A DNA stretch of 12,110 nucleotides, from positions 1 to 12,110 of the forward strand of contig SUPR01000100.1 in assembly GCA_005191425.1 (NCBI GenBank). The letters are read 5' to 3'. Below are positions 1 through 12,110 of the stretch, piece by piece. The DNA is from Candidatus Helarchaeota ASGARD archaeon Hel_GB_B. Lineage in GTDB: Archaea > Asgardarchaeota > Lokiarchaeia > Helarchaeales > HEL-GB-B. The stretch's first letter is position 1; each line of letters starts with the position of its first letter. A program made the position numbers and the translations under genes. Below the pieces are notes generated by a model. That model searched no databases. It worked only from the letters and a program-made list of their open reading frames with translations, and was not told the origin of the DNA.

Positions 1-132
1 TTTCCAGATTTGGTGAAAGGAATAATAAAAGAAATGGAAATAGGAAAAAAGATGTTAGGAAGGTCGGTGGGACTTGTGTTAAAAGTAATAGAGAACTGCG
101 GCGGAAAAATAGTGGAAAAAAATAAAAATTAA
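1..132 (+). mobile_element. Partial CDS at the window edge, C-terminus of a repeated ORF (possible transposase, family unrecognised)
   Basis: Frame 1 is open from base 1: FPDLVKGIIKEMEIGKKMLGRSVGLVLKVIENCGGKIVEKNKN*, with TAA at 130-132, then 40 nt to the repeat end. A stop close to the end of a multicopy unit is typical of IS right ends. No DDE or other catalytic motif is visible in this fragment, so the transposase call is inference. Confidence 0.5.
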
Positions 133-172
133 AGATGTTTTATTTTTAAAGCATAGAATTTTGTAAAAAGTC
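1..172 (+). repeat. Left copy of 172-bp inverted repeat (probable 3' end of an IS-like multicopy element)
   Basis: Block-by-block comparison: 1-172 is the reverse complement of 11939-12110, with one mismatch at position 157 (A here, G in the other copy). Identity breaks after ...TTGTAAAAAGTC. Confidence 0.97.
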
Positions 173-190
173 TTAAATAATATATTGAAA

Positions 191-290
191 AATTATAATT
201 ATAATTGACTAATTATGATAGGATTTTTTAAATAGGAATTAAAAAGATTATTTAAGACTTTTTTTAAAAATTATCTATAAAAGAAGTGAT
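191..290 (+). promoter_or_regulatory. Candidate promoter region for the ORF starting at 298
   Basis: TATA-like TTTTTAAAAA (261-270) and CTATAAAA (275-282) lie about 15-35 nt upstream of ATG 298. There is an A/T-only palindrome at 191-206. The AT-rich background makes these weak evidence. Confidence 0.3.
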
Positions 291-297
291 TTGAAAA

Positions 298-435
298 ATG
301 AATGATAATAAGAAGGGAATAGAATTAATCATTTTACGACTTTTAAAAACATTGGGAAAGTCAACTATAGAAGATTTATTTGATAAAATGCCTAATTTAA
401 AAAAAAACAAATTAGGTCAAAATTGGACCAATTAA
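298..435 (+). CDS. 45-aa ORF encoding the N-terminal half of a winged helix-turn-helix domain (0-frame product of the frameshifted gene); not in the supplied ORF track
   Basis: Translation: MNDNKKGIELIILRLLKTLGKSTIEDLFDKMPNLKKNKLGQNWTN*. ILRLLKTLGKSTIEDLFDK matches the helix1-helix2 pattern of wHTH domains. The recognition helix and wing continue in the -1 frame. Confidence 0.75.
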   Translation: MNDNKKGIELIILRLLKTLGKSTIEDLFDKMPNLKKNKLGQNWTN

Positions 436-3377
436 TAGATTTTGGATTAGTTATTAAAAAAAGAGAAAATAATAAGATATATTATAAAAATGCACCGATT
501 TTTGAGGATAAAATCTCAAAAGTTCGTTCTATAGATCCTGGTACCGCAGATGGTAGAGATCTATTTGAGATTACAGATTTATCTGATGTAATTCCAAATA
601 TGCCGCCTATGGAATTAACACAAATGGCTATCTCACCATCTGAGGAGGAGTTTACCCTAGAACAAAGTACTATCGAAGAAAGAGAATCAATTACCCATGA
701 AGCTGGAGCAATCTATGACAATTATATCCCAACTAATTTCGAAGTTAGCCTAGAAAATGCATTTTCATCAGACCTCCCTTGGAAAAAAGAATTAATTGAA
801 ATAGTAAAAGCAAGAGCTTCCAATAATAAAAATAAAATTATTAAATTACTTAAAAAATCAATACAAAAGGCTATTAAAAATAATTTAATAAGTTATCTAC
901 CAGAACTATACAAAAATCTAGCTGAAGAATATTCAAACGATAAATTGGCTGTTAAAAATATATATTTAGAAGCAATAGATTTTTTTAATAAACTGGACGA
1001 TAAAAGATATTCTATAGATTTTTATATCAAATTGGGAGATTTCCAATATAAAACTAAAAATTATGAAGACGCCTTAAAACAATATAAAATAGGGCTGTCG
1101 CTAGTCAATGAGAATGATCTGATCGATTTTATTCATATTTTATTTAATAAAATTGCAATGGTATATAGAGAATTAAATCAATTTGAAAATGCCTTAGAAT
1201 ATTATTTGAAGGACCTGCCAATTAGTGAAAAACAATTTAAACAAGATTTAGGGAAACTTTTGAATAAAATTGGTGGTGTATTAATAAAACTTGGTAGAAA
1301 TTCAGAAGCATTAAACTATTTTGATAGAGCAATTTCGATTTTTAAGGATAACAATGACATAAATAACCAAATAATAAGTCTGATGAATAAAAATGTGGCA
1401 CTTTTTAATTTAAAACAGTGGGATAGTCTAATTGATCTTTATTTGAATGTCTTAGAACTTTTAAAAGACCCCGAAAAAAAAGAGAGAATTTGGCGAGAAC
1501 TAGGAACAATTATCCAACATACCTCCAAAAAGGAATTGATTGATAAATATAAGTCTAAAATTAAAGAACTTAAAATCATAGAATCAGAAGAAGAGTTAGC
1601 AAGAAGAGCAAGAACAATTACAAAAATGGCAGTTTCCTCAGAAATTTCAACTTCAAAAATTACAAAAGCTCTTTGGAGTTTTAATACTGCAGTGTCCGCT
1701 TTTGTTGAAGGAAATTATGAAAAAGCTGAAAAATTATATCTAGAATCTGAAAAATTATATCAAGAACTAGAAGATTTAAAGGGTATAGGGCTATGTAATC
1801 ACCATCTCGGTTTGATTTACCTTCAAAATGATCAAATTGACCAAGCAATATCTAGATTACAATTTGCTACAAATGCTTTTGAAAATATTAAAAAAGAAAT
1901 TTCAATTGAACAATTCCGGACTACTCTCCAATCAGATGTAATTCCAGTCCTTGAAGATTTAACTTATGCATTTATTTTAAAAAATAATAAAATTGATGCT
2001 CTCGATTCCTTAGAACGAGGAAAAAGTCGAGAATTAATTAGAAAAATGGACGGTTTTGATACTATCGATAAATGTCCAAAAATGACAGACCTTATTAGAA
2101 AAGAAAATATTTTGTTGGGATATTTTCAAGAACGTGAAGATGAAATTACTCAATTAAAAAGCGATTATATAAATAATTATATAAATTTTGAATCATATAA
2201 ACAACGAATCAAGAAAATTAATAAAGAAATAAAAGACGCTTCAATTAAACTAAGAGAAATTAGGACAAAAATTTATGAAAATTGCGCAGATCCAGGTAAA
2301 GTTCAACCTTCTTTAAATTATAGTATAGTGAATAAGTCTAGAGATATTATCGGAAAAATGGACATTTTAATTCTTGAATTTTTTTATTATAAACGAATGT
2401 CAAAAATTTTTACAATTGTATTAAACTCTAACCATGATTTAGAATATTATTCTAAACCAGTTAATAATAAAGAACTACTATCTAAAATCGAACAACTTAA
2501 AATGGGAATTGATACTTTAAATGAAGATATTGTCTCAAAATTAGGAAGAGATTTGTTTGAACTGGTTATTCCTACAGAGTTTAGTATGAAATATCTTAAT
2601 ACACCTATAGAGAAACCATTAATTATTATTCCACACCATGAATTGTTTGCTATTCCTTGGGAAATTCTACAGAACCCACATAGTTCAGGAAAATGGGATG
2701 GTTTTCTGGGTCTGGAATGTTTATTAACTCGAAATTTTTCACTTGACTTAACAAGGATAATGTTGCAAAAACACTTAGAGAAAAAAGGAAATGAAATTCT
2801 ATTATTAGGAAATCCTACTAATGATTTAGATGGAGCAATGGAAGAAGTATTAATAATTAATGAGGTAATTGGTCAACATGGAATTAAAACAAATTTATTA
2901 TTAGGAAAAAGTATTACATTGAACTCTTTAAAAAATAATTTACGTTCTAATAAATTTGGAGTGGTCCATTATGCAGGACATGCAGATTTTATGGAATCAG
3001 ACCCATCACTATCAATGCTTATCTTGAATGATGGCCCTATTACAGCAAGAGAATTAGGTTTAATGCATTCTAATAACTCATTATTTTATTTATCGGCTTG
3101 CGAAAGTGGACAAGCATCTAGTATCAGCGGTGGGGAAATTTTTGGCATAATCAGAGGATTAACATTATCCGGAGCTCAAACAATTATAAGCACAAATTGG
3201 AAAGTCGCAGATGATTCTGCTCGAGATCTTGCCATACAATTTTATAAATCTTTGGAAAGTGGATTGAACGCAGCCTATTCTTTAAGAGAAGCAAGAAGAT
3301 TTGTAAAAATTAAATATAAAGAGATTTTACATTGGGCAGCTCCAACGATTTATGGAAATCCAATATTTACTCTTTGA
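298..3377 (+). CDS. wHTH-acidic linker-TPR-coiled coil-CHAT (clan CD caspase-like) protease, split by a -1 frameshift at 399-407; reconstructed length 1026 aa (ORF track gives only 423..3377)
   Basis: TPR-like repeats (e.g. YIKLGDFQYKTKNYEDALKQYKIGL, FNKIAMVYRELNQFENALEYY, LNKIGGVLIKLGRNSEALNYFDRAI). ALDSLERGKSREL motif typical of TPR-CHAT proteins. CHAT motifs LIIIPHHELFAIPWEIL, VHYAGHA (2967-2981), LSACESG (Cys 3099-3101), IISTNWKVADD and WAAPTIYG. The main frame is open back to 396. Confidence 0.9.
396..433 (+). other. Slippery site / homopolymer tract with downstream hairpin
   Basis: T_TTA_AAA (396-402) and A_AAA_AAC (402-408) are in X_XXY_YYZ register with the 298 frame. A9 run at 399-407. 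An 8-bp stem-loop AATT(A)GGTC-aaaattg-GACCAATT lies at 410-433. Confidence 0.6.
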
Positions 3378-3400
3378 CTTTTTTTAACTCTTTTTATTTA
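3378..3400 (+). terminator. Oligo-T archaeal-type terminator after the CHAT gene
   Basis: CTTTTTTTAACTCTTTTTATT follows the TGA at 3375-3377 directly. Confidence 0.45.
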
Positions 3401-3437
3401 AATTATTAGAATTAAATTTAAATATTTAAAAGAAATT

Positions 3438-3872
3438 CTAGAATTTAATCTCATTCTTGTTTTTAAATTCTTTTAAATCTTTTTCTAATAGACCAATTCT
3501 CTCTTTTTCCTTGTTAGCCCTCTCTTTCTCGATTTCTTCTCTTGTCTTATAAATTTCCAAAGTTTTTAGATTTATTAATACTAACCTGTATGTATCTGAC
3601 CCACCTTCATATTTCATTGAAGTTTTCATAATACCTAAATTAAATGGTAATATTAAGCTTGTATCAACGATATTTTTTTTAATTATATCACCATTTTCGT
3701 CAAAAATTATACCTTTTATTGTTTTTATGACATAGTTTTTATCTTCATTATCTATGAAAACTCGAAGAAATGGTGGCTTATATAATGAAACTGAAAAATT
3801 AAGTAAGAGAATATGGAAATACAGAATACAAAAAAATAAAAGTAAAGATAAATGAAAAATACGAAAATGATT
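3438..3872 (-). CDS. Hypothetical protein; frame is open for 144 codons but the first canonical start is ATG 3629 (63 aa), so the start is uncertain or the gene is frameshifted/truncated
   Basis: Upstream of ATG 3629 the same frame reads ...LYKPPFLRVFIDNEDKNYVIKTIKGIIFDENGDIIKKNIVDTSLILPFNLGI- into MKTSMKYEGG..., with no stop until the TAA at 3873-3875. The C-terminus is charged and coiled-coil-like. Confidence 0.5.
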   Translation of the reverse strand, partial: NHFRIFHLSLLLFFCILYFHILLLNFSVSLYKPPFLRVFIDNEDKNYVIKTIKGIIFDENGDIIKKNIVDTSLILPFNLGIMKTSMKYEGGSDTYRLVLINLKTLEIYKTREEIEKERANKEKERIGLLEKDLKEFKNKNEIKF

Positions 3873-3949
3873 TTATTTTTAGAAAATCCAAAGTGAGGAA
3901 TATATCAGATAAACTTATTAAATAAAATTGAAAAATAAGTTTAAAAAAG

Positions 3950-5428
3950 TTAGCGACGTCTACCTTTTTTATGGATTGCCATACCGTGGACATCCTCAGC
4001 GGTTTCTTGGACAATTTCGGAAATTGTTGGGTGTGAGTGTATAGTTTTACTGATATCATGGACTTTTAGACCATTTCTCATAGCAAGAGCCACTTCAGCT
4101 ATTAATTCTGGAGCTTCTGCGCCAATACATGATGCGCCCAGAATTTCATCTGTATTTGCATCTGCAATTATCATCATAAAACCTTCTTCTTCGCCCATAC
4201 ATTTAGCTTTACCAAGGCTAGCGTAGCCAAATCGGCCAACAAATGTTTTAATACCTTTTTCTTTAGCGGCTTTTTCTCGTATACCAACGGAACCGATTTC
4301 AGGACTTGTAAATATTGTAGCAGGGACAACGCTATAATCAGCGACCATTGGATCTACGCCAAAATTTCCAATTGAAGCTAGTGCATTAGCCACAGCCACA
4401 TTTGCTTCGTAATATGCTACATGGGCTAGCATAATACCGCCAGTTACATCCCCTATTGCATAGATACCTTTGCAGTCAGTTTCAAGAGTTTTCAAGTCAA
4501 CGACAATTTGTCCGCGATTGGTTTTTATGCCCATTTTTTCGCAGTTAAGTCCTTGAGATACCCGTTGACGACCTATTGAAACAAGGCAGTAGTCAGCGGT
4601 AAATTCGGTTTTTTCGGCTGAATCGATTTGATCTCTTGGAATATCTGCGGAACATGTTGTAGCCTTTACACCGTTTCCTGTATTTTCTACATTCAATACA
4701 TTTTGACTGACATGTATCTTAATACCCATTGATTCAAACTTTTTTGTGATTTGTCTTATAATCAATTTTTCTTCAGTTGCAATAGGTGTTGGTAAATATT
4801 CCAACATTTCGACTTCAGAACCCATTCTGCGGAAAATATTGCCGAATTCGCAACCAATAACGCCAGCCCCAATTATCAATAATTTTTTAGGTAAAACTTT
4901 AAAGTTGGGGTCTAGGATATCATCACTTGTAAGGATTCTTTCATGATCAATATTAAAAGCAGGGATCATTGCAGGTGCTGACCCAGTAGCGATTATTACT
5001 TTTTTTGATGTTATTTCAGTATTGTCATTGCCTTCAATTTTTATTTTAAAATTCAGATCTTGTCCACCGACAAGTGAGCCAAATCCGTGGAATAAAGAAA
5101 CTTTATTTTGTTTTAAGAGAGACTCAACTCCACTTACAAGTTCTTCTACGACTTTATTTTTTCTTTCTACTGCTTTGGAAAAATTTGGTTTAATATCACT
5201 AACCTCTATTCCAAAACTACTTCCTTTTTCCAATATATCCTCTAATAATTTTGCAGACGCATAAAGTGCTTTAGTAGGGATACATCCGCGGTTAAGACAA
5301 GTCCCACCAACTTTATCTTTTTCAACAAGCGCTACTTTTGCACCATATTGAGCCGAGCGGATAGCTGCATGGTAACCACCAGGCCCTCCGCCTAATATAC
5401 AGATGTCAAATACATCATTTTTGCTCAT
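3950..5428 (-). CDS. lpdA: Dihydrolipoamide dehydrogenase (E3)
   Basis: FAD-binding ILGGGPGGY, redox disulfide GGTCLNRGCIP, NAD-binding IIGAGVIG, YAIGDV, and C-terminal HSHPTISE catalytic His-Glu motif. Confidence 0.96.
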   Translation of the reverse strand: MSKNDVFDICILGGGPGGYHAAIRSAQYGAKVALVEKDKVGGTCLNRGCIPTKALYASAKLLEDILEKGSSFGIEVSDIKPNFSKAVERKNKVVEELVSGVESLLKQNKVSLFHGFGSLVGGQDLNFKIKIEGNDNTEITSKKVIIATGSAPAMIPAFNIDHERILTSDDILDPNFKVLPKKLLIIGAGVIGCEFGNIFRRMGSEVEMLEYLPTPIATEEKLIIRQITKKFESMGIKIHVSQNVLNVENTGNGVKATTCSADIPRDQIDSAEKTEFTADYCLVSIGRQRVSQGLNCEKMGIKTNRGQIVVDLKTLETDCKGIYAIGDVTGGIMLAHVAYYEANVAVANALASIGNFGVDPMVADYSVVPATIFTSPEIGSVGIREKAAKEKGIKTFVGRFGYASLGKAKCMGEEEGFMMIIADANTDEILGASCIGAEAPELIAEVALAMRNGLKVHDISKTIHSHPTISEIVQETAEDVHGMAIHKKGRRR

Positions 5429-5437
5429 TTTTTTTTA

Positions 5438-5442
5438 ACCTC
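5438..5442 (-). promoter_or_regulatory. Shine-Dalgarno-like GAGGT for lpdA
   Basis: The minus strand reads GAGGT-TAAAAAAAA-ATG, a 9-nt spacer to ATG 5428. Confidence 0.6.
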
Positions 5443-5626
5443 ATAAATTTGAATAATTAAAAACTTCGAATATTCATATTTAATTTTTGTTTTAAATAAC
5501 AAGAAATTTATTTTATTCAAATTTAAGAATATTTTTTCGAGTATAATTCCAAAAAATTATATCTAGAAGAGAAAAAAAACGCTATAGTATTGTGACCTTT
5601 TAAAAGACTTTCATTAATTATTACAT

Positions 5627-6259
5627 TTAAACGAATTCATAATATTGGTGTAATATTTTAAACATTTTTTTAAAGGGTAAATCAGAATAAGACCCTCTAT
5701 CATTTACGTATTCTATGAATTTTTCACCATTTATTGTGGTTTTTGGGAGGACAATGTCATTTATACCATCAAATTCTGCAGGTATATAATTATATTTTTT
5801 ACTTAATTCGACATTAAAGGCGGGTGTGGCTTTTATCCATTTTCCATTTAAAAATAATTCAGTATATCCATGGAAAACGAATAGGTTAGTACCCATTATT
5901 TCTTTTAATTTTCCCGAAATTTTGTAGTTTTTGATATCAGCGAAATGTAATTTAGAAGGTATATTTATAGATCTAGCAAGTGCAGCTAAAACGCAAGCCT
6001 TCTGGACACACCAACCTTTACCTGCTTGTATAATTTTAGATGCTTTGTAATTTTTTTGTCGTGAAGAGAAACTTTCGTAAGGATTGTATTTAATCTGGTC
6101 TCGGGTCCAGTAGAAAATTGCTTTGGCTTTTTCAATAATGTCATTTAGATTTTCTGTAATTTTTTTAGATATATTTATAACAACTGGACTATCAGAATCA
6201 ATAAAATAAGTTGGTCTTAAATATTCAGTCATTTTTTCCAAACAATCAACCTCTTCCAC
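5627..6259 (-). CDS. Transglutaminase-like (papain-fold) protein; start may be GTG 6259, TTG 6241 or ATG 6232
   Basis: EKAKAIFYWTRDQIKY, GKGWCVQKACVLAALARSINIPS (catalytic Cys) and FHGYTELFLNGKWIKATPAF (catalytic His). A GAGGT at 6248-6252, inside the end of the upstream gene, fits a TTG 6241 start. Confidence 0.9.
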   Translation of the reverse strand: MEEVDCLEKMTEYLRPTYFIDSDSPVVINISKKITENLNDIIEKAKAIFYWTRDQIKYNPYESFSSRQKNYKASKIIQAGKGWCVQKACVLAALARSINIPSKLHFADIKNYKISGKLKEIMGTNLFVFHGYTELFLNGKWIKATPAFNVELSKKYNYIPAEFDGINDIVLPKTTINGEKFIEYVNDRGSYSDLPFKKMFKILHQYYEFV

Positions 6260-7103
6260 TCAATATTTTGACAATTTCTGGGAATATATAATCAGCTACT
6301 TTTATATTATCACCGCCCATTGAGGTAATCAAATATCGTCCCTTGCATAACTCCATTGCGCATTTATTAACTTTTTTAACCAATTTCAAAAAGAATTCTT
6401 CGGAGAGACCTCTCGAGCCGTAATCATCATAGTGTGTATCATGTCCTAAAACGTGAATAATAATATCTGGTTTAAAATCTTTTACTTTTAAGATAAAATT
6501 TTTTTCGACTTTGTCAAGATATGCATCGTCACTGGTCCGCCACCCAACATCCACACAAAATTTTGTATTTTCATCTTCAGCTAAGTTTTCATCGCAGAAA
6601 CAAACATGTAATACATCGTGATCCCCTAGGAACATATCACGTGTACCATCAGCATGGTGTGAGTCGGTATCAATGATAGCAAAACGGAAATTTTTATCAG
6701 GAAATTTATTTCTTAAATTTTTTATACCAGGGCCAGTAAGTGATGCATAAGTCCCACCCCAAGCTGAAGTTTTCCCAGCATGGTGACCAACAGCTACCAT
6801 AAAATTCAATGCATTGGTAATTTCATTTGTCCAAATTTTTTCTAAGGCACTCATGAACCCACCAATGGTATAAAGCCCACCTTCAGCATACCAAGAAGAT
6901 AAAAACGATTTTACAAGATTTTCTGAATGAACTTGATAAAGTATATCTGGAGGTGCTTTTGGAGACTCATATAAAACAACATTATCAAATTTTAAGACTT
7001 CGCTTAATACTTCTGGAAAGTGTATAAATTTATCACCAATAATTGGCCAGTTAGAACCTTTAAAAATATTATTCCAAAATATTCCAGTTTTTACATTGGC
7101 CAT
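6246..7103 (-). CDS. Histone deacetylase family (HDAC/AcuC/AphA-like) Zn-dependent amidohydrolase, divergent
   Basis: VGHHAG (His-His dyad), IIDTDSHHADGT (Zn ligands D and H), DFKPDIIIHVLGHDTHYDD (third Zn ligand). The terminal motif is SMGGD instead of EGGY. Confidence 0.9.
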   Translation of the reverse strand: MANVKTGIFWNNIFKGSNWPIIGDKFIHFPEVLSEVLKFDNVVLYESPKAPPDILYQVHSENLVKSFLSSWYAEGGLYTIGGFMSALEKIWTNEITNALNFMVAVGHHAGKTSAWGGTYASLTGPGIKNLRNKFPDKNFRFAIIDTDSHHADGTRDMFLGDHDVLHVCFCDENLAEDENTKFCVDVGWRTSDDAYLDKVEKNFILKVKDFKPDIIIHVLGHDTHYDDYGSRGLSEEFFLKLVKKVNKCAMELCKGRYLITSMGGDNIKVADYIFPEIVKILSGRG

Positions 7104-9117: not shown

Positions 9118-9645
9118 ATGAATTATAATGATTTTAAAAAAACTGAATTTTATAAATTTTTCAATTTAAACAAGACCAAAACTTCTATAAAAGACGATAT
9201 GACGGAAATTTATTTTAAAACTGGTGGATTTCAAGAATTTATCGATATTATAATTCTGATTAACAAAAATAATGATATTATAGAAGCAAAATTGATAATT
9301 GAACGGGAATGGATAGGAAATATAAAAAATATTAACCCATTTTGTAAGGATATAGTGAAAAGTTTTATTTCTGTATTCACGCCTCTAAATGATAAAAATA
9401 AAATAAATAAAATTATTGAAACAATTTGGAATTTAAAAGGAGAAAATGATTATATCCTGTATATTAAAGGGCCAGAAAAAAAGCAACATAAACTCAATGA
9501 AAAAGAGCAAAAGGTTATTGATGTATATTTAAATCTAATACCTTTCACTGAATTTAAATTAAAATCATCTACTTTTTTATTCAGAAATATTAAAATAAAT
9601 AAATCTGTTAAATTTAATATTATTTGGAAGATTAATAGTAAATAA
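9118..9645 (+). CDS. Hypothetical protein (175 aa)
   Basis: Intact ORF 16 nt after the M28 stop, with GAGG (9104-9107) upstream. No family recognised. Confidence 0.7.
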   Translation: MNYNDFKKTEFYKFFNLNKTKTSIKDDMTEIYFKTGGFQEFIDIIILINKNNDIIEAKLIIEREWIGNIKNINPFCKDIVKSFISVFTPLNDKNKINKIIETIWNLKGENDYILYIKGPEKKQHKLNEKEQKVIDVYLNLIPFTEFKLKSSTFLFRNIKINKSVKFNIIWKINSK

Positions 9646-11285: not shown

Positions 11286-11873
11286 ATGTCCGATATAGAT
11301 AGCTCTGAAGAAGAAATTGACATCAAAAGTCTATATAAAGTAGTAAATATAGTAGCAAGTGTTCAATTTGAAATAGAAGGTCTGATAGACTTAAATTTAA
11401 TAGCATTAAAAAATAAAAATACCGAATACAATCCAGATACATTTCCTGGACTAATTTTGAGGTTGCAAAAGCCAAAAAGTACCGTTTTAGTATTTTCAAC
11501 GGGCAAACTTGTAATTACAGGATTGCGAAAAACAGAAGATGTTAATCCTGTTACATCTCAAGTAATTAAAATCCTTAAAAAAAGTCGAATTAATATTATT
11601 GGAGAACCAAAAATTGTCATTCAAAATATAGTAGCAAGTGGAGATTTACATATAAGTATCAATTTGAATTTAATGAGTATTAGTCTAATGCGAGCGTTAT
11701 ATGAGCCGGAAGTTTTCCCAGGACTTATATATAGGATGGACAACCCAAAAGTAGTGTTTCTAATTTTTGCCAGTGGCAAAATAGTTTGTGTTGGTGCTAA
11801 GTCGGAAGAATTTATTCAAGAAGCAGTAAAAAAATTATTAACTCAAATTCAAGATTTAGAATTTGAAATGTAA
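11286..11873 (+). CDS. tbp: TATA-box binding protein (archaeal TBP)
   Basis: Two direct repeats: VNIVAS...YNPDTFPGLILR...LVFSTGKLVITG and QNIVAS...YEPEVFPGLIYR...LIFASGKIVCVGA. All four DNA-intercalating Phe positions are present. Short acidic N-terminal extension. Confidence 0.98.
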   Translation: MSDIDSSEEEIDIKSLYKVVNIVASVQFEIEGLIDLNLIALKNKNTEYNPDTFPGLILRLQKPKSTVLVFSTGKLVITGLRKTEDVNPVTSQVIKILKKSRINIIGEPKIVIQNIVASGDLHISINLNLMSISLMRALYEPEVFPGLIYRMDNPKVVFLIFASGKIVCVGAKSEEFIQEAVKKLLTQIQDLEFEM

Positions 11874-11892: not shown

Positions 11893-11938
11893 AATTAATT
11901 TAATTTAATTCATTTAATTTACATTTTTTATTATTAAT

Positions 11939-12110
11939 GACTTTTTACAAAATCCTATGCTTTAAAAATAAAACATCTTTAATTTTTATTTTTTTCCACT
12001 ATTTTTCCGCCGCAGTTCTCTATTACTTTTAACACAAGTCCCACCGACCTTCCTAACATCTTTTTTCCTATTTCCATTTCTTTTATTATTCCTTTCACCA
12101 AATCTGGAAA
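11939..12110 (-). repeat. Right copy of 172-bp inverted repeat
   Basis: Reverse complement equals 1-172 except one base (GCATAGGATT vs GCATAGAATT), which lies in the non-coding tail. Confidence 0.97.
11979..12110 (-). mobile_element. Partial CDS at the window edge, second copy of the repeated ORF C-terminus (possible transposase)
   Basis: Identical 43-codon open frame plus stop on the minus strand, running off the window end. Confidence 0.5.

Follow-up and report, generated by a model that had tools for sequence, protein, structure and literature searches.

The window analysed here is a stretch of 12,110 nucleotides (nt) of Candidatus Helarchaeota archaeon Hel_GB_B (contig SUPR01000100.1), with a G+C content of about 26% and, as befits DNA of an archaeon, a TATA-binding protein encoded at 11286-11873; the sequencing runs that contain this DNA are labelled as hydrothermal-vent and marine-sediment metagenomes. 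It carries a gene for a protease in which an array of tetratricopeptide repeats (TPR) precedes a caspase-like CHAT domain, and the coding sequence of this gene is interrupted close to its 5' end. A short open reading frame (ORF) of 45 amino acids (aa) and the long frame of the protease body meet at a run of nine A residues (A9), and the following features define the junction:

283..290, plus strand: candidate Shine-Dalgarno-like sequence GAAGTGAT, 7 nt 5' of ATG 298, predicted from the sequence
298..435, plus strand: 45-aa ORF (P0001) from ATG 298 to TAA 433-435 under standard decoding, with a 9-residue out-of-frame tail
298..405, plus strand: predicted ancestral codons 1-36, comprising helix 1, a short strand and helix 2 up to the turn between helices 2 and 3 (H2-H3 turn)
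396..407, plus strand: T3A9 tract (TTT 396-398, then A9 399-407), proposed site of a net one-base deletion
396..3377, plus strand: long frame (P0002) of 993 codons, open throughout and lying one base behind the frame of ATG 298
405..495, plus strand: recognition helix (H3) and beta-wing in the -1 frame; residues 4-33 of P0002 align with residues 37-66 of the orthologue P0005 introduced below
423..425, plus strand: TTG chosen by gene callers as start of a 984-aa product, corresponding to Leu43 inside helix 3 and not the ancestral start

The frames of P0001 and P0002 share a 40-nt overlap that begins at TTT AAAAAAAAA (396-407). A -1 shift at any point of the tract leads from the 298 frame into the 396 frame, as would the addition of one base to the DNA, and yields a joined product of 36 + 990 = 1026 aa with the junction ...MPNLKK/KQIRSKL.... 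An earlier reading made from the letters of this DNA (the sequence-only reading) had noticed the overlap of the two frames at the A9 run and had proposed that one extra A or a -1 shift would unite them into a single protein starting with a winged helix-turn-helix domain (wHTH). The overlap and the junction are as described there, and the union of the two halves is borne out by orthologues that are encoded in a single frame.

The first of these, P0005, is a protein of 1026 aa annotated as 'CHAT domain-containing protein [Candidatus Helarchaeota archaeon]' that falls into the same 90%-identity cluster as the 984-aa product. Its length equals that predicted for the joined product of the window, and its N-terminus corresponds to the window ORF at 298-405 followed by the main frame, with differences at 4 of the first 70 residues. 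Within residues 1-36, P0005 and the window disagree only at positions 29, 34 and 36, and this stretch can also be aligned with a second orthologue, P0008. The DNA encoding P0005 (L012) is 98% identical to the window in the gene at the nucleotide level and reads CCT AAT TTT AAA GAA CAA CAA ATT where the window has CCT AAT TTA AAA AAA AAC AAA TT; at the position of the tract (TTTTAAAGAACAA) it is thus one base longer, in frame and free of a homopolymer. P0008 stems from the genome representing the second species of the genus (G001, locus L013). It is the product of a single 1012-aa ORF, shares 49% identity with P0005 and matches it from residue 1, including the same N-terminal domain. L013 carries AAAAGAAAATAAAAC at the position equivalent to the tract, and here, too, the homopolymer is absent. 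An A9 run is not a rare sequence in itself (284 A9/T9 runs genome-wide). The join between the two halves is nevertheless not a matter of chance, because two natural orthologues encode the N-terminus and the body in one frame. By this comparison, the window gene is predicted to encode, in its ancestral state, one protein of 1026 aa consisting of a winged helix, a linker, a TPR array and a CHAT protease. The sequence-only reading had left two outcomes for such relatives, an intact frame or the same slippery motif kept out of frame; only the former is found.

Comparison with the relatives also bears on the start of the gene. ATG 298 is kept in L012, and the equivalent N-terminus in L013 begins at TTG. 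TATA-like AT-rich stretches can be discerned at 261-282, upstream of ATG 298; the upstream region with the Shine-Dalgarno-like GAAGTGAT is conserved in L012, and AAGGAG precedes the start in L013. Judged by this conservation, ATG 298 is the true start. The 984-aa gene model beginning at TTG 423 misrepresents the ancestral gene, just as the earlier doubts about this start codon had it: TTG 423 falls midway along the recognition helix. The product of the short ORF, identical to P0001, has been annotated on 11 public contigs.

The N-terminal domain was modelled with AlphaFold2 on residues 1-70 of P0005, aligned with P0008; the joined sequence of the window deviates from the modelled one at the 4 of 70 positions already mentioned. 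The model (mean predicted local distance difference test score, pLDDT, 87.8; predicted template-modelling score, pTM, 0.73) describes a compact domain of about 65 residues with the element order H-b-H-H-b-b, in detail helix 8-19, strand 21-22, helix 24-30, helix 36-48 and strands 52-57 and 60-65. An earlier single-sequence model of P0005 residues 1-120 had reached a pLDDT of 45.6 and hinted at a winged helix only by the order of its secondary structure elements. All 50 of the 50 best Foldseek matches of the 1-70 model in the PDB are winged-helix domains, among them AspA, ArsR/SmtB, MecI, MarR, Zalpha, RPC34 and TFE, with TMq values up to 0.81 and root-mean-square deviations (rmsd) around 1 A. 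The N-terminal ~70 residues are, as far as the model can tell, a canonical winged helix of the DNA-binding type, in agreement with the domain assignment that had been made from the sequence alone.

No Pfam wHTH family reaches its gathering score for this domain. The best sub-threshold matches are TrmB (15.5 bits, cut-off 25.6), SAMD1_WH (15.3 bits, cut-off 24.5) and TFIIE_alpha (14.4 bits, cut-off 22.9), and every other sub-threshold match is a winged-helix family as well (the O-methyltransferase dimerisation domain, Tfb2, Cac1_C and PaaX). The weak matches of the domain in the Atlas likewise all belong to winged-helix families, and its neighbours in language-model space, which serve as leads only, are small MarR-, DsrD-, BlaI- and FaeA-like proteins (scores 0.88-0.90). 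A profile built from the two orthologous sequences found the Zalpha domain of fish PKZ as its best match in the PDB (4lb5, E 0.004), followed by archaeal and bacterial winged-helix regulators. In the Zalpha domains of ADAR1 and PKZ, a conserved Asn and a conserved Tyr of helix 3 contact Z-DNA. In the HMMER alignment to 4lb5 the Asn of PKZ (...TVNRHLYSL...) is placed opposite Arg/Lys and the Tyr opposite Asp, and an identity as a Zalpha domain was rejected. In the modelled fold and topology the domain resembles AspA of pNOB8, ArsR/SmtB, MecI/BlaI, TrmB and Zalpha (TMq 0.7-0.81, rmsd ~1 A over about 60 residues), but unlike these small stand-alone regulators it is fused to a protease. The frameshift, at residues 35-37, falls exactly into the H2-H3 turn just before the recognition helix. 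Since TTG 423 in turn lies within that helix, neither ORF alone would provide a foldable domain, and the earlier statement that each half is incomplete holds.

Downstream of the winged helix the protein is composed as follows:

496..938, plus strand: linker between winged helix and TPR array, without a Pfam match and partially conserved with P0008
939..1751, plus strand: TPR repeat region (Pfam TPR_12, TPR_2, TPR_1 and TPR_MalT at P0002 residues 182-329, TPR_16 at 425-452)
2541..3359, plus strand: CHAT (caspase-like) protease domain (PF12770, P0002 residues 716-988, E 1.6e-40)

The match to PF12770 scores 139.8 bits against a cut-off of 24 and covers positions 3-289 of the 289 positions of the profile. 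The motifs HYAGH and SACES, which we take from knowledge of the family to be the catalytic His/Cys dyad, are intact in the translation of the window and conserved in P0005 and P0008-P0011. With its TPR array in front of a C-terminal CHAT domain that carries a His/Cys dyad, the protein is built like TPR-CHAT proteases in general (PF12770 plus TPR arrays), for instance Csx29 of the type III-E CRISPR 'Craspase'. Unlike in that example, no CRISPR or other defence genes lie near the gene within the window, and PADLOC returned a generic TPR model only and no assignment to a defence system. A further difference is the N-terminal winged helix, whose fusion to CHAT was seen with a domain profile only in this genus among 41 genomes. 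The order-level relatives P0009-P0011 share 29-32% identity over the TPR-CHAT body and are devoid of the winged helix. TPR-CHAT orthologues of 893-933 aa at L014, L015 and L016 (order-level relatives G004, G002 and G006) have Lys/Glu-rich low-complexity N-termini in its place. When the N-terminal 110 residues were compared with 1.84 billion representative proteins, nothing was retrieved apart from proteins of the genus itself and two giant, repetitive ones, and a word-based comparison of the first 220 residues yielded only the window's own cluster. From these comparisons the winged helix appears to be a genus-specific addition. A 1014-aa ORF with a weak winged-helix profile match (G035:C128) was dismissed as a second case, as it contains neither a Pfam family nor CHAT.

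Homopolymers are the classic place for indel errors and several of the runs concerned have a low coverage (3-6x word depth), and the simplest explanation of a frame broken at A9 would be a miscalled tract in a genome that is in reality in frame. The sequence-only reading had listed this among its options. It is very unlikely, for 11 other records, from different samples, share exactly the T3A9 of the window. Together, these 12 records (the window, MEGAHIT and SPAdes assemblies from ENA, two JGI metagenomes, three NCBI metagenome-assembled genomes and a Logan contig) come from at least four assembly pipelines and more than 10 samples dated 2017 to 2025. The Logan contigs of three runs from different studies (X2, X3 and X4) cross the tract without an indel. 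At window position 535 the frameshift-bearing records show an A/G polymorphism, with A in the window and G in L009-L011, in L012 and in the Logan contigs of X2 and X3; slightly different sub-strains therefore all carry T3A9. In addition, 52 other A9/T9 runs lie in frame within long ORFs of the same assembly, and only one of three other strong candidates for a one-base join at long A/T runs, checked genome-wide, looks truly split. Most join candidates in the genome turned out to be adjacent separate genes, and homopolymer errors throughout the assembly were dismissed as an explanation.

The split candidate is an A9 run at G000:C13:8565-8573 (L023:766-774) that lies between two overlapping ORFs, one of 205 aa and a following one of 208 aa with a match to the ISL3 transposase family (E 2.9e-9). 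The ISL3-type transposase could be frameshifted or dependent on slippage. L025 was rejected as a split gene and represents two separate genes, an AAA ATPase beside a VWA protein, and the third candidate is without a Pfam match and may be merely two adjacent ORFs.

With the tract accepted as real DNA, the locus is probably best explained by a recent and genuine deletion of one base in a mutable T/A tract, specific to one haplotype and thus a strain-level event, which under standard decoding removes the winged helix. The T/A homopolymer tract of a gene that originally consisted of a single ORF would have lost one base, an origin that is plausible given the high mutability of long A/T runs. Translation from ATG 298 would then produce a 45-aa fragment and stop at 435, so that the winged helix would be lost. 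Synthesis of the TPR-CHAT body would depend on ribosomes that initiate internally or re-initiate, for instance at TTG 423, which lies 10 nt before the stop; failing that, the body would not be made at all. The records with the frameshift all belong to one haplotype, down to the repeat element 5' of the gene, and they therefore reflect one mutational event that has been widely sampled.

Which base was lost is a question on which the relatives allow two answers. Residue 37 is Lys in the outgroup P0008 as well as in the joined reading of the window, so that the ancestral stretch may have been rich in Lys and in A. P0008 reads K-K-K at this place, and L012 has the interrupted form K-E-Q. By comparison with TTTT AAA GAA CAA in L012 the deletion may equally have shortened a T4 run to T3 or an A10 run to A9. 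An A10 tract as the in-frame form, as had been assumed at the outset, is therefore possible but not necessary.

The body of the gene shows no signal of decay in the frameshifted copy, neither in the ratio of non-synonymous to synonymous substitution rates (dN/dS) nor in the polarised changes. On the 3' side of the tract it differs from L012 at 56 nt, with 30 synonymous and 26 non-synonymous codon changes and a dN/dS of 0.21. When the amino-acid changes were polarised with P0008 as outgroup, 7 fell on the lineage of the window and 5 on that of L012, while 15 could not be polarised. An intact body without an excess of substitutions implies either that the event is young or that the protease is still useful without its winged helix. 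The latter is conceivable because the order-level relatives naturally do without this domain. Of the earlier suggestion that the gene is recently pseudogenised, the recent frameshift mutation fits best; a decay of the body is not seen.

Several observations nevertheless weigh against a plain frameshift mutation. The downstream frame of 990 codons is wholly open with its His/Cys dyad intact, which resembles a frameshift that is tolerated or rescued, and the same is true of the frequency of the frameshifted haplotype, which has been assembled more often than any other in samples from 2017 to 2025. The tract is as slippery as sites of known function (A9 as well as A-AAA-AAT of fucA1). Moreover, tract lengths were read in contigs, where a minority of A10 molecules and slipped transcripts are invisible, and the single haplotype underlying all frameshifted records proves that the allele is real, yet as a single event. 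These points raise the possibility, which we put forward tentatively, that RNA polymerase slippage on A9 and/or -1 ribosomal slippage on A_AAA_AAA rescues the gene in a leaky manner and provides a minority of full-length 1026-aa protein. The gene would in that case be turned down and not lost, by analogy with Saccharolobus fucA1 or with poly(A) rescue in AT-rich endosymbionts.

Several features of the site speak for such a rescue. Three overlapping heptamers of the type X_XXY_YYZ lie in the correct frame, that of ATG 298, together with the A9 run: T_TTA_AAA (396-402), A_AAA_AAA (399-405) and A_AAA_AAC (402-408). They are followed at about the right spacing by a further element:

410..433, plus strand: weak bulged hairpin of 8 bp, 3-8 nt past the slippery heptamers, predicted by RNA folding

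The 40-nt overlap and the position of this hairpin recall fucA1 of Saccharolobus solfataricus, the sole experimentally proven case of -1 programmed frameshifting in archaea (PMC8211752). There, an 81-aa and a 426-aa ORF overlap by 40 nt at an A-AAA-AAT heptamer in a strain-specific manner, and the trans-frame product has been demonstrated both in vivo and in vitro. Other Sulfolobales share the sequence surrounding this site, with the length of the A run changed by a single base (PMC8211752). The window resembles fucA1 in several respects: a short N-terminal ORF (45 aa here) precedes a long C-terminal ORF in the -1 frame with an overlap of the same length, an A-rich slippery site (A-AAA-AAA here) is followed by a putative stem-loop, and the frameshift is limited to particular strains with close relatives being full length. 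In contrast to fucA1, the in-frame relatives of the window gene, L012 and L013, lack the slippery homopolymer altogether, and the hairpin (-5.0 kcal/mol, z -1.71) is not significantly more stable than shuffled sequence, 14 of 200 shuffles (7%) being equally stable. Across 396-520 the RNA is no more structured than shuffled sequence either (z -0.07). Because the orthologues are without the tract and the downstream structure is weak, a conserved, evolved recoding is not supported by the comparison, and the same applies to the initial idea of a recoded gene in so far as a conserved programmed site was meant. A pause at a hungry codon is not expected either, since AAA is used frequently in this genome with its 28% G+C.

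Slippage during transcription would have other precedents. In bacteria it occurs on runs of 9A/9T, as in Thermus dnaX, in IS elements and in frameshift alleles that are rescued by slippage (PMC1088944), and the window resembles these sites in having an A9 run on the sense strand exactly where one added A restores the frame. The length criterion of about 9 or more residues is a bacterial one (PMC1088944) and may not hold for the RNA polymerase of this archaeon. In genome G000, the proportion of A/T runs lying inside long ORFs declines with length: it is 48% for runs of 5, 34% for runs of 8, 18% for runs of 9 and 13% for runs of 10 or more, with the steepest fall between 8 and 9. Following the reasoning of PMC1088944, this depletion from long ORFs suggests by analogy that such runs are harmful, i.e. 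slippery, in this organism, and it would speak for a rescue, as would the intact body without excess substitutions and the wide distribution of the frameshifted haplotype; on the other side, the higher A+T content of intergenic DNA accounts for a part of the depletion. The more specific idea that full-length wHTH-TPR-CHAT protein is produced at a low, set level by slippage on A9 or by -1 frameshifting appears rather doubtful. If it were true, recoding in archaea would gain a second example besides fucA1, and the Asgard archaea their first, and the tethered DNA-binding domain would be dosed relative to a form of the protease without the winged helix.

The sequence-only reading had also considered the gene to be phase-variable and currently OFF. 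T3A9 would then act as a contingency locus that switches by replication slippage between OFF (A9) and ON (A10 or T4A9). Homopolymers of at least 9 residues are generally known to be hypermutable (see also the discussion in PMC1088944), and switching would make sense for a caspase-like protease, a type that is often tied to conflict systems. The length of the tract is, however, constant in 12 of 12 records and in three Logan runs, a weak argument given that minority variants are hidden in contigs. No 1026-aa version of the frameshifted haplotype is present among the cluster members, and at the level of contigs neither the assemblies nor a collection of 15 billion proteins yielded an A10 or other in-frame form of it. 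The sole close allele that is in frame, L012, is without a repeat tract. Phase variation is thus unsupported, and we consider it improbable.

The surroundings of the gene differ between the two alleles in a patchwork manner. The upstream end of the window is occupied by a repeated sequence:

1..182, unstranded: copy of a repeated element, an inverted repeat of 11929-12110 (98% identical), ending about 130 nt upstream of the gene

The genome contains at least 10 such copies, several of them at contig ends. The full copy on contig C19 (L022) spans the end of a 149-aa ORF, and the preceding 175-aa ORF has a weak match to DDE_Tnp_1 (E 0.006). L012 lacks the element and has ABC-transporter genes instead, with homology to the window starting at 157. 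Over window positions 157-6377 (L012:2861-9081), all 80 of 80 differences fall into 157-2765, a stretch that takes in the upstream region and the 5' 80% of the CHAT gene, and none into 2766-6377. Two neighbouring genes, Pyr_redox and transglutaminase, are 100% identical. This mosaic divergence suggests either a recombination tract ending within the region encoding the CHAT domain or a strain-chimeric assembly. Further downstream in the window, a 175-aa ORF (9118-9645) between an M28 peptidase and a PIG-L deacetylase has no Pfam or PADLOC match.

Taken as a whole, the findings speak for a recent frameshift mutation of an ordinary kind at this locus and not for an evolved recoding signal. The gene that was hit encodes a wHTH-TPR-CHAT fusion that has been seen only in this Helarchaeota genus (41 genomes, 1.84 billion representative proteins). 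In-frame and frameshifted alleles in otherwise near-identical genomes constitute a natural pair with which the role of the tethered winged helix can be probed, and the same pair is suited to asking whether the transcription or translation machinery of Asgard archaea slips on A9.

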